This document shows positions 2,616 to 9,034 of a stretch of DNA of 64,000 nucleotides, piece by piece. The notes under the pieces are model-generated. The model was not told the origin of the DNA. It saw only the letters and a program-made list of their open reading frames with translations, and made no database searches. Source of the stretch: an uncultured virus (IMG/VR IMGVR_UViG_3300037067_008364) (Duplodnaviria > Heunggongvirae > Uroviricota > Caudoviricetes); IMG/VR virus record IMGVR_UViG_3300037067_008364, positions 1 through 64,000 of that record; one strand, written 5' to 3'. The position numbers and the translations under genes were made by a program. The stretch's first letter is position 1; each line of letters begins with the position of its first letter.

Positions 2616-2689
2616 TAGACAAGTGCATGGGAATTGAACCCACAACAGATGGCGTAGAAGCCATTGCTCAACCATTGAGCTAGCACTTT
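2616..2689 (-). tRNA. atypical/degenerate tRNA with 6-nt anticodon loop TTCTAC (Arg-TCT-derived or CTA amber-like)
   Basis: AAAGTGC TA GCTC-AATGGTT-GAGC A ATGGC-TTCTAC-GCCAT CTGTT GTGGG-TTCAATT-CCCAT GCACTTG; 1:72 mismatch, no CCA. Confidence 0.75.
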
Positions 2690-2744: not shown

Positions 2745-2827
2745 AACATTGCGGATTACCATTGATCCGATTCAGCCATGTATTTTTTTGGGGGCTGAAG
2801 CAGGATTCGAACCTGCATTTCAATGTT
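2745..2827 (-). ncRNA. circularly permuted tRNA-like gene (3' half precedes 5' half)
   Basis: 3' half AACATTG AAAT GCAGG-TTCGAAT-CCTGC TTCAGCC C CCA; 11-nt linker; 5' half GGCTGAA TC GGAT-CAATGGTA-ATCC G CAATGTT. Confidence 0.7.
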
Positions 2828-2981
2828 GTTTTAGAATACATACCCGGCTACTTGATTCCGACATCAACCAATAAACTTGTTGGGCAATACACCAACACTA
2901 AGTCGACCATTGTTACGAACACAAGGTTCTTATGGTCATTTAACACTGATACTAGCGATAAGTTTAGCCCATTGTTACTAT

Positions 2982-3227
2982 TTATTCTATAGTTAATTCA
3001 TAATACGCCATAGCACAAGCAGCCAATAGTTCTCCTGAACTTAAAATACTTTTGCTATTTGTAATCTTTTCTGATATTACAGTCAATAACAAACATATCT
3101 TTTTAAAATCTGATATGTCAATATGACAAGATGTAATATGTTCTTTGATCAAATCGCATGCAATCCGAACATCTGGGTTGTCACGCATAATATTATCAAT
3201 AATACCTTTCGCTTTTTCTGTTCTCAT
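2982..3227 (-). CDS. hypothetical protein
   Basis: Start overlaps the upstream stop (TAATG). Confidence 0.6.
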   Translation of the reverse strand: MRTEKAKGIIDNIMRDNPDVRIACDLIKEHITSCHIDISDFKKICLLLTVISEKITNSKSILSSGELLAACAMAYYELTIE

Positions 3228-3451
3228 TATTTCATTCCAGATATAAATTTGTTGACAGTCTTCCGCACATCGGCATGTTTGATATCAGCGACAACAATCC
3301 CGCCGAGATTATCACTGTACTTTTTGATGTGCCTGATAATCTTGCGAGCCTTGTTCTTGACCTGTCGATTCTCCGCATCATACCGAAGTTTGGATGGGGC
3401 TTTCAGGTTGCGTCCTTTTTTCTTTGAATTTTTTCCTTGACCACCAGCCAT
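3227..3451 (-). CDS. small basic protein
   Basis: AGGAG RBS before MAGGQGK; the longer ORF-track start runs through the tRNA. Confidence 0.7.
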   Translation of the reverse strand: MAGGQGKNSKKKGRNLKAPSKLRYDAENRQVKNKARKIIRHIKKYSDNLGGIVVADIKHADVRKTVNKFISGMK

Positions 3452-3468
3452 AGTATTTATCTCCTTTT

Positions 3469-3544
3469 TGGTAGCGGGAGTCGGATTCGAACCGACAATC
3501 TCTTGGTTATGAGCCAAGCATCTTAACCATTAGAATATCCCGCA
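3469..3544 (-). tRNA. tRNA-Met(CAT), initiator-like
   Basis: Cloverleaf with CTTGG-CTCATAA-CCAAG, GTCGG-TTCGAAT-CCGAC, 1:72 mismatch, encoded ACCA. Confidence 0.92.
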
Positions 3545-3560
3545 ATCCCGCCACCGTATA

Positions 3561-4328
3561 TTACTTTCCTTCCTTCTTTTCTCCGCTGATGAACCTGCAT
3601 ATCGCATTTCCGATTGATGCTGGTTTCACTTCAGTACAGTTGGCTCTCATACGAGCCTTCTTTGTTGCCTGAATCAATTTATCCACACGCTCAAGCAACT
3701 CTGCTTTCTTGGCAGGAGAAATCAATCCGCTCCATGAATCGGTAATGTACTTACCAACGTTTGTGTTGACATTCCATTTCTCTATCTGTGCAGGATGTTC
3801 CTTGGTAGCATCATAGAGAACCTTGTGCATGAATGTCTTTTCTGTTTTGAACGTGGTCTCAGGTTCGACACGTTTGTATATGTGCTCACCTTTCGACGGG
3901 TCTTTTTCCCATTTGATTCCCGGGGGAAGAGTACCAACTGTTAGGATCATATCCTTGATTCGTTTCATCTTCTCTTCAAGACCGAGAAGGAATGTTGCCG
4001 GAAGGTCTTTCGCTATTACAACACCGTCAATTTCGAGGTCTGCGACAGCTTCCTGATTTGTCTTCTCTTTCTGGAGTACAACATCAATGTACCCGGAGAA
4101 TTGCTGACCCACCCAGTCGAGTTTGTCGTATACAGTAGTGTCTATCTCTTTGATATCCACAGTACCGGACTTTGCGTTCTCTTCCTCATCGAAATACTCA
4201 AGGCGTTTCTGGAATCCGAAGAAGTGCTCACTGCGTTTAGTGAATGTTACTTTGGCTTCATCCACCACAGCCTTGAAGACGTTGGCTTTGTCGGCTTCTA
4301 CTGCAAGAAGTTCATGTAGCTTACCCAT
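3561..4328 (-). CDS. conserved phage/bacterial hypothetical protein (MGKLHELLAVE... family)
   Basis: 255 aa, CAGGAG RBS, motifs PATFLLGLE and ATKEHPAQ. Confidence 0.8.
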   Translation of the reverse strand: MGKLHELLAVEADKANVFKAVVDEAKVTFTKRSEHFFGFQKRLEYFDEEENAKSGTVDIKEIDTTVYDKLDWVGQQFSGYIDVVLQKEKTNQEAVADLEIDGVVIAKDLPATFLLGLEEKMKRIKDMILTVGTLPPGIKWEKDPSKGEHIYKRVEPETTFKTEKTFMHKVLYDATKEHPAQIEKWNVNTNVGKYITDSWSGLISPAKKAELLERVDKLIQATKKARMRANCTEVKPASIGNAICRFISGEKKEGK

Positions 4329-5397: not shown

Positions 5398-6240
5398 TTA
5401 TACACGCGCCTCTTCAGCTTCGAGCTTATATCTCTTGTCGTCTTCCGCTACCTTATTCAGTATCCTCTGAACCTCTTCCTTGGCTTTGTCTATTGTTGCA
5501 AACTTGTCTGCTTCAGCTCCCGGTTTCATTGCAGGAAAATGAATACAATCCTTTGGAAGCTCCGGATGATAATTTTGGTTTACAGAACCATATCCACCAC
5601 AATTAGATCTATTAAAAACCCTTTCATCAAGTGAAAACATGATACGCCTAAGGAATGATTGGTTTGCAACATAGAAAGCCATGCTGTCGTGAGAGAAATC
5701 ATTATCCGTGTCGATATGGAAGTATGCTTCGATATGTTTAGACCCAACTACATCTTCTGCAAACTCATATACAACAAGGTCAACTCTATGTGTCATAAGT
5801 AATCTCTCAACAAGAGCCATAATTGCTGCACCACGGTTATATATATTATCCTGAGATATACTATACACTACAGATGCGCCAGTATATACAGGGATAATAC
5901 GCTTAAATCCTTCAGCTGGTATCACCTTTGCAAAGCATTCAGGTATTCCGGCAAGGTATGACCCTATATCAAGATAGTCACCTTCGGTGTCCATAAGAAT
6001 ACCCATACCATCAACTTCATCAAGCTTTGCGTTTATCTTGTCCATTGCATACTTCATCTTTGTTATTCCTTCGTGCCACCCATACTTCAACATAGTTATA
6101 GCTTCATCCCATGAATACTTACAGAAATCATGGTTACTATATTCACGTGAATGATGTGATTCAGGTGTATCTTTCACGAAGTCATACAGTTCCTTGACAG
6201 TATACATATGAATTTCTTGTCCGCCACTTTTTACAGCCAT
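5398..6240 (-). CDS. VWA-like partner protein of MoxR-type ATPase
   Basis: Adjacent to the AAA gene; D(I)GSYLAGIPEC, RGAAIMALV, FLRRI and GGYG motifs typical of this phage pair. Confidence 0.65.
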   Translation of the reverse strand: MAVKSGGQEIHMYTVKELYDFVKDTPESHHSREYSNHDFCKYSWDEAITMLKYGWHEGITKMKYAMDKINAKLDEVDGMGILMDTEGDYLDIGSYLAGIPECFAKVIPAEGFKRIIPVYTGASVVYSISQDNIYNRGAAIMALVERLLMTHRVDLVVYEFAEDVVGSKHIEAYFHIDTDNDFSHDSMAFYVANQSFLRRIMFSLDERVFNRSNCGGYGSVNQNYHPELPKDCIHFPAMKPGAEADKFATIDKAKEEVQRILNKVAEDDKRYKLEAEEARV

Positions 6241-6259
6241 ATGTACTTTCCTTTGTAAT

Positions 6260-7663
6260 TTATTTTACCTGCTCTTCAACCTTATCCTTAACATCTTTTG
6301 ATACCCCACGGTATATAAGCATATCTTTGAGTGCGTTCTCATCCTTGAAACCATTGGAGAGCAGTACACCACCACGGATAATGGCACGAGTTGATACGAT
6401 AACATTCTCTCCAAGTTTGTATACCGCTGCCCGGATACGCTGTACCTTACGACACCAATCTTTATTGGGGGCAAGATCATATTCAAGATTCTCATCGTAG
6501 TCGAAATTGAACACGACGAACCTGTCAAGAGTAGCACCGTCAATCGGATTACGTCCAACATATTTACGGTCAGCACCACGACCATATGTATTACCTGCGC
6601 ACATGAATACAAAATCTTCATGACGTTTGATGATCTGGTCAGGAAATGAACCTACATTATTGGACAATAGTGCATTGATAACAGTAAGCACATTAGGATT
6701 GCCAGCATCAATTTCATCAAGCAGGAACAACCCACCATTTTCATATGCCTTTCGAAGATGAGACGGAACATACTGCCCATGAGCATCAAGATATCCCATG
6801 AGGTCTGACTTTGTGGTCTGTAACCCGACAGAAGTAAAATAGAATTTCAATCCGAGACCTTTGGCTACCGAATCACCAACAAATGTTTTACCTGATCCAC
6901 TCGGCCCGACAAGAAATGTATCAAGCCTCATTTGTGCAAGCCTGAGAATGGTATCAAAATCCCTGTGCTGTTTACCAAGTTCAACCTCATAGTTCTTCAC
7001 TTCATCACAGATTTTAATAATCTTTACACGGCTTAATGCCTCAATCTTTGTGTCGATAAGATCATTTAATTCAGGACGCGTAATGGGATTCAACTTATCA
7101 GTGAGTACACTTGCAAGAGAACCGGAAAATATTTCGGCAAGCATTCTCATCATTGCAGGAGACATGTTCCCTCCTGCTCCTGCACCATCATTACCATGCT
7201 GTTTGGCAAGTTCATCTAACATGCCATCGGATAACCGTATAGTTTCCTGTTCTTCGAATGCCCCGGTAAGTTTGTCATACAGCACAGCGATAAGCTGATC
7301 TTTTGTCTTTGATTTATATGTTCCCTTTTCTGATTCTTCATGGTCAACCTCATTGAGAACATTGAGCAAATCCTCTTTTACCATCTTCCCGATCATATCA
7401 GCAGGGATACCGTTATTGCTTTTAATATAACTCTCAAGAGTCACAACCTTATACATCACGTTCCCTATCCACCCCATAGGAACCTGTATATCAGAAGGAT
7501 TACCGGACTCATCGAGTTCAAACGCTAGATCGTCTTCACATATTTCCTTATAGTCTGTGATGATCCATGTATACTGCCTTCCTGTTTGAAGATGTTTGTA
7601 TTTTGCACCTGTAAATTCAAGATTCTGGCAGAATATTGAACCGATCTGATATTTTCTACTCAT
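6260..7663 (-). CDS. MoxR/CobS-like AAA+ ATPase
   Basis: Walker A GPSGSGKT, Walker B LLDEID, GNT...GRN..D.ATLDRF, STR. Confidence 0.9.
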   Translation of the reverse strand: MSRKYQIGSIFCQNLEFTGAKYKHLQTGRQYTWIITDYKEICEDDLAFELDESGNPSDIQVPMGWIGNVMYKVVTLESYIKSNNGIPADMIGKMVKEDLLNVLNEVDHEESEKGTYKSKTKDQLIAVLYDKLTGAFEEQETIRLSDGMLDELAKQHGNDGAGAGGNMSPAMMRMLAEIFSGSLASVLTDKLNPITRPELNDLIDTKIEALSRVKIIKICDEVKNYEVELGKQHRDFDTILRLAQMRLDTFLVGPSGSGKTFVGDSVAKGLGLKFYFTSVGLQTTKSDLMGYLDAHGQYVPSHLRKAYENGGLFLLDEIDAGNPNVLTVINALLSNNVGSFPDQIIKRHEDFVFMCAGNTYGRGADRKYVGRNPIDGATLDRFVVFNFDYDENLEYDLAPNKDWCRKVQRIRAAVYKLGENVIVSTRAIIRGGVLLSNGFKDENALKDMLIYRGVSKDVKDKVEEQVK

Positions 7664-7741
7664 AGCACCATCCTTGCGTTAAATAATTTTATTATTTATT
7701 GTACATCAACACTTATAGTAAATTAATATCTCCTTTAACTG

Positions 7742-9034
7742 TTATATTGTTTCGAGTAGTTTGATTGCATCTTGATAATGTAAAAATATATTATCATATG
7801 TATATTTGGAAATTTCTATATTACTCTCAAGTATCTTGCCATGATCGAAGTATACATTGACATCCATTGATGTTCCATATTCTTCTATTTGTGCGTCTGT
7901 CATCATCACATCACATCCGACTTTTGGCAGACTGTATAGAGGAATATTCTGATCATCGAAACTTTCACCATTGCTGGTTCTCGAACAGTCATCATCATAA
8001 TCATGCATTTGTTCAAGTTCGCCATAAAGTTTCTTCGCCTTTTGCAGTACACGCTTGAAGTCTGCCTTATGGATAATATATTCCTGAGTGACATATACAC
8101 ATTCACCATCAATCCTTGCATATCCATGCTGTTGCCATAGATGCTTGCAAGAATGATTGTCCATTGTTACACTAAATTTCTGATCAATATTTAAATGTAT
8201 CCCTTTCTTCATATCGGCAAACTTAACATCAAGTATCTTACTGAATATAGTATCATCTGTAATATATGTTAGATAATCAGCAATGTATAATTCATTGATA
8301 CAGTATACCGCCATTCTCGTATATGGATTACCATCTGTAAATACAATATCTTCAACAAGGTTTGAATTTTTATATATGACAGCGTAATTCTGTTCCAGTA
8401 TTTGACCATGATTATATTTTGATTGCAACATCTTTTTATCTTTCTTGACAGCCTGAAATGCATACAACTGTTTATGATCTATATACTCTTTGAGTTTTGA
8501 AAGTGCCTGTTCATCTGCATCACATCCCCTTAACACTTTCTTTACTTTATCAAATCCACCGCGCATCTTAATGTACTTTTCGGCATGCTTTATCACACCA
8601 TACGCATATGCATATCCATTGATACGTTTTGATGCCTTTCCTTTCTTCATAAGCGTTTCTATCTTATTTACATAAGAATGTATTTCGGTCTGCAACTCAT
8701 CATTCCCACCATTATTATCAATATGTATAGTTGGGCATATTATGAAAGTTACATCTTTTACATCATCCGGTTCAAGACAATAAAACTCAGTAATAACACA
8801 GCTTCTGTGTGATGAATCACTAAATCTGCATGTCATAAGTACATATACATGTCCATGTTTATCCTGTACTGATTTAAAGTATGCATGTTGAGTATCATAA
8901 TCATGTCCCATGACACCATTTTTATATGTTACTGAATCATGTATCCCGGAAAGATATGTATACCATTCACCACTTTCATGTCTGACCAACGCTCTTATAG
9001 CACTATTACCATCTTTATATTGTAACCCTGACAT
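7742..9034 (-). CDS. hypothetical protein
   Basis: 430 aa ORF, no recognised motif. Confidence 0.8.
   Translation of the reverse strand: MSGLQYKDGNSAIRALVRHESGEWYTYLSGIHDSVTYKNGVMGHDYDTQHAYFKSVQDKHGHVYVLMTCRFSDSSHRSCVITEFYCLEPDDVKDVTFIICPTIHIDNNGGNDELQTEIHSYVNKIETLMKKGKASKRINGYAYAYGVIKHAEKYIKMRGGFDKVKKVLRGCDADEQALSKLKEYIDHKQLYAFQAVKKDKKMLQSKYNHGQILEQNYAVIYKNSNLVEDIVFTDGNPYTRMAVYCINELYIADYLTYITDDTIFSKILDVKFADMKKGIHLNIDQKFSVTMDNHSCKHLWQQHGYARIDGECVYVTQEYIIHKADFKRVLQKAKKLYGELEQMHDYDDDCSRTSNGESFDDQNIPLYSLPKVGCDVMMTDAQIEEYGTSMDVNVYFDHGKILESNIEISKYTYDNIFLHYQDAIKLLETI

Follow-up and report, generated by a model that had tools for sequence, protein, structure and literature searches.

The window analyzed here, a stretch of 64,000 nucleotides (nt), comprises positions 1 to 64,000 of a phage genome of 94,377 bp (IMG/VR record IMGVR_UViG_3300037067_008364) that is rated complete and encodes a terminase, a portal protein, and NrdD; the terminase is 45% identical to the terminases of small siphoviruses. 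On its minus strand, the window carries a gene for a 255-amino-acid (aa) DUF7873 protein (positions 3561 to 4328; Pfam PF25283, E = 9e-69) and, downstream of it, a tRNA-like element in circularly permuted order (2745 to 2827) that an initial annotation, made from the sequence, had singled out. In our reading, with the processing proposed below included, this element is very probably the head of one ~190-nt noncoding RNA of the YrlA type (~2690 to 2880), in which a rod carries the permuted tRNA-shaped head, and which belongs to a DUF7873-linked family that does without Ro60.

A permuted tRNA-like head on a predicted rod

Read from 5' to 3' on the minus strand, the head begins with AACATTG (2827 to 2821), which pairs with CAATGTT (2751 to 2745) at its far end to form a closing helix resembling an anticodon stem. 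It continues with a 4-nt variable loop (AAAT, 2820 to 2817), a perfect T arm (GCAGG-TTCGAAT-CCTGC, 2816 to 2800), the acceptor 3' strand TTCAGCC (2799 to 2793), a discriminator C (2792), and CCA (2791 to 2789). An A-rich linker of 11 nt (2788 to 2778) closes the acceptor hairpin as its loop and leads into the acceptor 5' strand GGCTGAA (2777 to 2771), a TC in the place of U8 and C9 (2770 to 2769), the D arm GGAT-CAATGGTA-ATCC with GG in its loop (2768 to 2753), and a G26-like G (2752). This is exactly the order, with the coordinates, that the initial annotation had described, and its claim that both cross-half helices are Watson-Crick paired at 7 of 7 positions with cloverleaf spacing holds as well. 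Folded alone, the 83 nt adopt the permuted cloverleaf at -24.9 kcal/mol, compared with -14.9 ± 3.0 kcal/mol for shuffled sequences (z = -3.35; 0 of 200 shuffles as good). The residues U8, D-loop GG, A15, and U48 are all present, as is the TTCGAAT T loop. Besides its sequence and its own fold, a covariance model of relatives (R1) and the Rfam YrlA model, both described below, pick out the head.

The initial annotation had allowed that a misassembly might have created this arrangement. A contig from an independent metagenome run (X2, of another study) is identical to positions 2221 to 2806, with 0 differences, and since it spans the junction of the two "halves," that junction is not an assembly artifact. 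Another contig corresponds to 2840 to 3076; positions 2807 to 2839 are in neither.

The sequences on either side of the head are predicted to pair with each other. In the minimum free energy (MFE) structure of 2690 to 2885, the head sits atop a long imperfect rod whose 5' strand (2828 to 2880, minus strand) pairs with 2690 to 2744. The 5' strand, at the predicted 5' end of the RNA, contains AATCAAGTAG..GGTATG..TTCTAAAAC, which resembles the corresponding part of one relative (L005). The 3' strand (2690 to 2744), delimited by the MFE structure, the flank duplex, and R1, has its predicted end ~4 nt before a further tRNA-like structure, here called element C. Taken as a duplex, the window flanks reach -27.0 kcal/mol (z = -3.07).

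An RNA family just downstream of DUF7873 genes

Using an alignment of 30 DUF7873 homologues (the protein has 1,388), we retrieved 80 loci from IMG/VR. The pattern used to scan them called for a T stem of 5 perfect bp whose loop resembles TTCRANY, then a 7-nt strand and, beyond a loop, its perfect complement, followed by a D arm; the permuted module turned up behind DUF7873 in most loci. R1 was built from an alignment of 25 relatives picked by this pattern, with the window excluded. In the window, R1 matches 2716 to 2840 on the minus strand over its full length (71.6 bits, E = 1.7e-21), and this is the sole strong match in the 94-kb genome. At E ≤ 1e-12, it finds the RNA in 73 of the 80 loci, 48 of which lay outside the training set, and every match is on the strand of the DUF7873 gene, 95 to 1,585 nt downstream of it (median, 147 nt). 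No match was obtained at this threshold at the other seven loci (L030, L036, L043, L062, L064, L067, and L072). Family members score 49 to 106 bits.

All seven cultured phages with DUF7873 that were tested also carry the RNA, in each case unannotated and with R1 scores of 46.9 to 72.4 bits: Rhizobium phage RHph_Y1_11 (72.4), Arthrobacter phage Racecar (63.4), Klebsiella phage vB_KpM_FBKp24 (60.4), Gordonia phage Ronaldo (52.4), Ralstonia phage phiRSL1 (51.6), Vibrio phage D517 (49.2), and Pseudanabaena phage Pam2 (46.9). Their DUF7873 proteins are 29 to 45% identical to that of the window, and across the whole set the link between RNA and protein holds over 29 to 58% protein identity. Of 50 loci on contigs of bacterial and archaeal genomes, ~20 have the RNA downstream of DUF7873, many of them from Bacteroidota. 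When 11 proteins of the window were compared by tblastn with 81 loci, DUF7873 alone was shared. Members of the family stand just downstream of DUF7873 and on its strand in phages with widely differing hosts and also in some bacterial genomes.

Searches starting from the window itself were less productive. An exact 24-mer of the T arm and acceptor strand had 0 matches in IMG/VR, blastn against cultured phages matched only an ordinary tRNA-Met gene of the window, and single-protein scans with the DUF7873 protein, a 92-aa neighbor, the terminase, and an AAA ATPase yielded no usable near relatives.

Several features of individual loci are worth recording. Loci L097 to L136 form a coherent DUF7873 group (36 to 41% identity) from Bacteroidota (Cytophagales, Microscillaceae, and Saprospiraceae), including a complete Bernardetia chromosome, and R1 detects the RNA in only some of its members. 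Tandem R1 matches, i.e., two heads behind one DUF7873 gene, occur in L140 (2299 to 2415 and 2454 to 2590), L141 (2333 to 2447 and 2491 to 2605), L047 (3886 to 4031 and 4042 to 4175), and L057; the window has one. Small genes annotated as "hypothetical protein" overlap the R1 match in Gordonia phage Ronaldo (L137, 2489 to 2698) and Vibrio phage D517 (L139, 2431 to 2526), and these are probably false gene calls.

In the alignment of 69 distinct sequences, pairing holds in 95.1% of cells, and compensatory changes occur at every one of the 21 pairs; covariation scores 0.893, compared with 0.216 for shuffled alignments and at most 0.164 for structures slid along the alignment. The search for homologs with compensatory changes that the initial annotation had proposed therefore bears out its central idea, a circularly permuted tRNA-like gene in a phage whose cross-half pairing is functional, as relatives keep that pairing through compensatory changes. 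Since the 25 training sequences were chosen for perfect T and acceptor helices and the 69-sequence alignment (A5) was fitted to R1, the pairing percentages of these two helices are in part the product of construction. The closing helix had no part in sequence selection, and in a plain MAFFT alignment with fixed register it is paired in 68.8% of cells; structures slid by 1 to 3 columns are 34 to 51% paired overall. In some members, a variable loop of 5 nt displaces the register.

Tertiary contacts of tRNA are kept as well. All 69 sequences have U8 and the D-loop GG, and in 66 of them positions 15 and 48 form a pair (G15:C48 in 51 and A15:U48 in 15), against 43.8 expected under independence. This conservation of U8, the D-loop GG, and the 15:48 pair supports an L-shaped tRNA-like fold for the family.

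The flanks of the head have been read in another way. In the initial annotation they were taken for decayed, redundant halves. A related reading, considered at first and then abandoned, sees in the locus a tandem pair of decayed tRNA paralogues; their inner halves would pair by common descent and do nothing. The redundancy that the initial annotation noted is real: a direct repeat links CATTGAAATGCAGGTTCG (2825 to 2808) with ACTGAAATGCATGGTTCG (2736 to 2719) at a local alignment score of 28, beyond chance when compared with 16.0 ± 2.6 for shuffles (0 of 150 as high). The repeated unit of ~16 nt (TGAAATGCA[T]GGTTCG) lies in the variable loop and T stem of the head and again in the 3' rod strand, and it was not noticed in relatives. 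There is also a weak match to the Rfam tRNA model RF00005 at 2792 to 2869, and Chen et al. (2014; PMC4201824) caution that tRNA dimers can mimic YrlA.

The decayed halves did not hold up. The window flanks align to conserved R1 positions (1 to 15, with high posterior probability, and 95 to 122), a listing of the flanks shows their sequence likeness to those of relatives, and in the family the 55 nt preceding the T arm pair with the 60 nt that follow the D arm beyond the level of shuffles (the mean z is -2.56, and 34 of 48 distinct cores have z < -2). The flanks are the two strands of a rod kept in relatives, not decayed tRNA halves. As for the dimers, true tRNA pairs do reach 20 to 39 bits under R1, far below the 71.6 bits of the window, which answers the caution of Chen et al. 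The match at 2792 to 2869 scores 17.9 bits, below the cut-off of 29, ARAGORN is silent there, and the MFE structure of this segment contains no cloverleaf (z = -1.37), so two intact tandem tRNAs, which the initial annotation had considered, are not what lies here. Given further that the permuted order is kept in 73 of 80 loci and in all seven cultured phages, with compensatory changes, a pair of decayed tRNAs is an extremely improbable account of the element. An alternative hairpin that might arise from the direct repeat was considered and rejected (the fold of 2800 to 2850 retains the T arm, z = 0.21), as was a sarcin-ricin-like motif (an AGUA/GAAA pair in the rod) as a family feature, which occurs in just 15 of 48 cores.

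Circularly permuted tRNA genes were reportedly described by Soma et al. in 2007 in Cyanidioschyzon merolae and are said to exist also in some other algae and in archaea. Like the phage element, such genes have the 3' half upstream of the 5' half and an acceptor whose closing linker would be opened by RNase P and a 3' nuclease. If the phage element were a true gene of this type, its RNA would be circularized and reopened to a decoding tRNA, and the short linker, the 7-bp acceptor stem with CCA, and anticodon-loop-like heptamers in the flanks would fit. The Cyanidioschyzon genes, however, mature to real tRNAs via a circle made by splicing endonuclease and ligase, whereas the ends of the phage module enter a long rod: the flanks run on as rod for ~50 nt per strand, and joining the outer ends yields no 7-nt anticodon loop to restore. 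Within the family there is free variation in the discriminator and the acceptor sequence, and no bacterial enzyme for such splicing is known according to Wang et al. (2018; 10.1101/312249). RtcB was not found in the genome of the phage. Recoding, a possibility prompted by the suppressor-like CTA heptamers, was rejected since the standard code already gives dense open reading frames (ORFs); with a genome that this code fits, there is no call for a special tRNA. We therefore give next to no credence to a decoding tRNA made from this element.

Two-piece permuted transfer-messenger RNA (tmRNA), found in alphaproteobacteria and cyanobacteria, is likewise comparable in that a CCA-ended acceptor piece precedes a piece starting with the acceptor 5' strand and the product is in two pieces. 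It differs in lacking a D stem and in having a tag reading frame and pseudoknots. Neither ARAGORN nor Rfam finds a tmRNA in the window, and the Rfam tmRNA models give weak partial matches on relatives. One relative, a 209-kb phage record, has an ARAGORN tmRNA gene (L070, 5505 to 5895; tag GKQPSKAEPMKLAA) ~1.7 kb downstream of DUF7873.

Comparison with YrlA RNAs and Ro60

The arrangement of the head as the top of a rod is that of YrlA. As described by Chen et al. (2014; PMC4201824), YrlA RNAs lie beside Ro60 genes in >250 species of bacteria and phages, and one of their domains mimics the T arm, D arm, and acceptor stem of tRNA. YrlA-type Y RNAs are thus already described as circularly permuted tRNA mimics, phages included (PMC4201824; Wang et al., 2018, 10.1101/312249), and the statement in the initial annotation that no phage permuted tRNA was known has to be withdrawn. 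The YrlA design is known, and the phage family is a widespread, unannotated, DUF7873-linked version of it.

In the segment 2690 to 2900, the Rfam YrlA model (RF02553) matches 2722 to 2841 on the minus strand, end to end (model positions 1 to 114), at 20.4 bits (E = 0.038), compared with a gathering cut-off of 69. In 10 DUF7873 loci the same model gives seven matches directly behind the gene, all below the cut-off (27.4 to 47.3 bits), and its alignments to relatives reproduce the YrlA layout of outer stem, T arm, closed acceptor hairpin, and D arm. The window RNA has the traits of YrlA: a permuted module with a closing helix, the tertiary contacts of tRNA, and paired 5' and 3' ends. The YrlA RNAs of Salmonella Typhimurium, Mycobacterium smegmatis, and phages share with it the stem formed by the ends, the order of T arm, closed acceptor, and D arm, and the tertiary contacts.

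The simplest alternative is that the RNA is a canonical, Ro60-dependent YrlA whose rod binds Rsr/Ro60 of the host, as in the machine formed by Rsr, Y RNA, and PNPase, with DUF7873 as an incidental neighbor. The overall design and the end-to-end Rfam alignment speak for it, as do the phage YrlA RNAs known beside phage Ro60 genes (PMC4201824) and a TROVE gene in the record of one relative, L047. In contrast, the Ro60-binding motif GNCGAAN0-1G, as given in PMC4201824, is in neither flank of the window and in only 3 of 48 family cores. TROVE genes are missing from the 94-kb genome of the phage itself, from 44 of 46 relatives' records (including all 23 records that are at least 90% complete), from all seven cultured phages, and from three of five bacterial genomes with DUF7873, one of them a complete chromosome. 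Given that the link to DUF7873 persists across the range of protein identity noted above and that the Rfam scores of 20 to 47 bits stay below the cut-off, dependence on Ro60 is improbable.

Judged from its sequence, the window RNA is a Ro60-less, DUF7873-linked branch of the YrlA design that departs from the Ro60-linked family in three defining respects: it has no Ro60/TROVE gene nearby or in its genome, it lacks GNCGAAN0-1G, and it scores below the Rfam cut-off. The phage family also differs from YrlA in encoding a near-invariant CCA, in having DUF7873 as its neighbor, and in being followed often by a second tRNA-like element in conventional order. The search of Chen et al., as described in PMC4201824, was confined to the flanks of TROVE genes, and a family without Ro60 would therefore have escaped it.

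The L047 record (G019) is the only one among the relatives' records with a clear TROVE/Ro60-like gene (84817 to 85548, in a 476-aa frame), which lies a few kb from its DUF7873 locus; that locus also has two R1 matches and many tRNAs. This record is a possible bridge between the Ro60-linked and the DUF7873-linked systems.

Proposed processing, companion elements, and DUF7873 as a candidate partner

At the acceptor end, the discriminator varies (G in 22, T in 28, C in 6, and A in 13 of 69 sequences), and the three positions after it are C in 69, C in 62, and A in 65 of 69, i.e., an encoded CCA. In the window, the 7-bp acceptor helix is followed by N-CCA within the closing loop, and N-A-U stands at positions -3 to -1 before the acceptor 5' strand, as in 35 of 69 sequences. 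A U at -1 together with a 7-bp stem suits the leader preference of bacterial RNase P. Opening of the window RNA by RNase P, with 3' trimming, to a two-piece, CCA-ended mimic, which the initial annotation had suggested, is plausible by analogy with M. smegmatis YrlA, whose acceptor stem also has 7 bp, permitting cleavage by RNase P, and which gains CCA in vivo (PMC4201824; 10.1101/312249).

A conserved A-U-G spans the presumed RNase P site and starts a very short reading frame, which in the window (2779 to 2756, minus strand) consists of ATG plus six codons to TAA. In many relatives, as judged by eye, the frame reads ATG-NNN-NNN-TAG, since U8-A9-G10 supplies an in-frame stop. It is probably a by-product of tRNA-like constraints.

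Element C (2619 to 2689, minus strand) begins 64 nt beyond the head's D arm and ~4 nt past the rod. It is a cloverleaf in conventional order with a 6-nt anticodon loop (UUCUAC) that ARAGORN reports as "tRNA-???" (RF00005, 48.2 bits; fold z = -3.27). Among 47 cores from relatives, 17 have an ARAGORN tRNA that begins 49 to 62 nt after the D arm, often with anticodon ATA, TAT, ATG, or TTA or with a loop of 6 or 8 nt; GenBank labels the companion as tRNA-Ile(tat) in RHph_Y1_11 and as "tRNA-Sup-TTA" in FBKp24. From these sequences, element C and its counterparts are probably not decoding tRNAs. A parallel is offered by the tRNA-like elements at the 3' ends of long RNAs, such as the mascRNA of MALAT1, mentioned in 10.1101/312249. 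A tRNA-like structure right after a structured RNA would let RNase P set the upstream 3' end, which is the role that we propose for element C by analogy with a system that, in contrast, is eukaryotic and nuclear.

These companions raise the question of whether the RNA is merely a cis-acting part of a polycistronic mRNA behind DUF7873, punctuated by tRNA shapes that serve as RNase P or RNase Z sites or as stabilizers. The RNA is always on the DUF7873 strand and close behind the gene, a second tRNA-like element often follows 49 to 62 nt on, and 3'-end processing of long RNAs through tRNA-like structures is known (cited in 10.1101/312249). A bare cutting site, however, would have no need of a conserved rod, of an acceptor that is closed and encodes CCA, or of a preserved 15:48 pair, and in the window DUF7873 and the RNA have other genes between them. 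We consider a purely cis-acting role quite unlikely, a little more so than dependence on Ro60.

For the Ro60-less YrlA-type RNA that we favor, processing might proceed as follows. The window RNA would be made within a longer transcript, and cleavage by RNase P at the 5' end of element C would free the 3' end of the rod. RNase P would also cut 5' of G2777, guided by the leader A-U at -2/-1 and the 7-bp stem, and exonucleases would trim the A-rich loop back to the encoded C-CCA (2792 to 2789). The product would be a two-piece tRNA mimic with a free CCA end, in which the rod replaces the anticodon arm. Most speculatively, such a mimic could engage host factors that read the tRNA elbow or acceptor end, with the DUF7873 protein as its phage-encoded partner in the place of Ro60.

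The DUF7873 protein itself gives few clues. Its predicted structure is of high confidence (predicted local distance difference test score of 90.8). A wide structure search (VIA) returned generic helical bundles at best (Z = 9.3), the protein atlas contained only DUF7873 clusters, and the protein has no family in PHROGs. A literature search on a link between DUF7873 and RNA found no DUF7873 publication. In the literature on Y RNA or YrlA and phages and on permuted tRNA and phages, the family is absent from titles and abstract openings; the supplementary phage tables of PMC4201824 were outside the scope of this search.

An ordinary tRNA-Met gene (CAT anticodon; 3472 to 3544, minus strand; ARAGORN; RF00005, 64.2 bits) and two small ORFs (3227 to 3517 and 2982 to 3227) lie between DUF7873 and the RNA. 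R1 also gives 28 bits at 3408 to 3520 (minus strand), where the 3' half of tRNA-Met, CCA, an A-rich Shine-Dalgarno stretch, and ATGGCTGG follow one another without a D arm; the A-rich stretch and ATGGCTGG resemble the loop and the 5' acceptor strand of the head (…AAATAC-ATGGCTG…). ATGGCTGG likely marks the true start of the small ORF listed at 3227 to 3517. Upstream of DUF7873, 5398 to 9034 (minus strand) encodes a DUF7192 protein, an ATPase of the AAA_5 family (MoxR/CobS-like), and a protein of 430 aa that has no family. In tblastn searches, none of these three was shared within 3 kb in the 80 IMG/VR loci; Klebsiella phage FBKp24 has an AAA-domain protein a few genes upstream of DUF7873. Promoter-like sites numbered 4, against 4.6 expected.

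Besides the partly built-in pairing of the T and acceptor helices and the sub-threshold YrlA score of the window, several observations weigh against our interpretation. The window RNA and DUF7873 are 721 nt apart, a distance that takes in a tRNA and two ORFs, compared with the median of 147 nt in the family; the tRNA-Met gene and the small ORFs account for this unusually long spacing. The fold of the whole 196 nt is no more stable than shuffles (z = -1.12). The A-U at -2/-1 is missing in about half of the family, and some members have the CCA paired with UGG in a longer closed hairpin, so opening by RNase P cannot be general. Finally, the DUF7873 protein has a neutral isoelectric point (~7) and no recognizable RNA-binding fold (Foldseek against the PDB returned nothing at E ≤ 0.001), and a physical partnership with the RNA is therefore suggested by gene order alone.

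The furthest-reaching form of our proposal is that many phages make a ribonucleoprotein of DUF7873 and the RNA that is independent of Ro60 and whose anticodon-less CCA mimic, opened by RNase P, acts on host machinery that reads the elbow or acceptor end. We regard this as unlikely, though somewhat less so than the dependence on Ro60 discussed above. If it were true, the mimic could be a substrate for CCA-adding or aminoacylating enzymes, or it could serve as a decoy for defense toxins by which tRNA 3' ends are modified or cut. Cultured carriers of the pair that infect harmless hosts, including the Rhizobium, Gordonia, and Arthrobacter phages, make processing, partner, and phenotype directly testable.

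The family is unannotated in GenBank phage records and is hidden in some under small "hypothetical protein" calls, while the filing of its companion element as tRNA-Ile(tat) or as a TTA suppressor distorts inventories of phage tRNAs and codon usage. Its range takes in phages of Proteobacteria, Actinobacteria, and Cyanobacteria, as well as genomes of Bacteroidota. Y RNAs have been understood only as partners of Ro60; here, the same tRNA-mimic design occurs without Ro60 and is tied to one protein family of unknown function. That the design recurs without Ro60 suggests an independent role for the tRNA-like head, an issue that dates from 2014.

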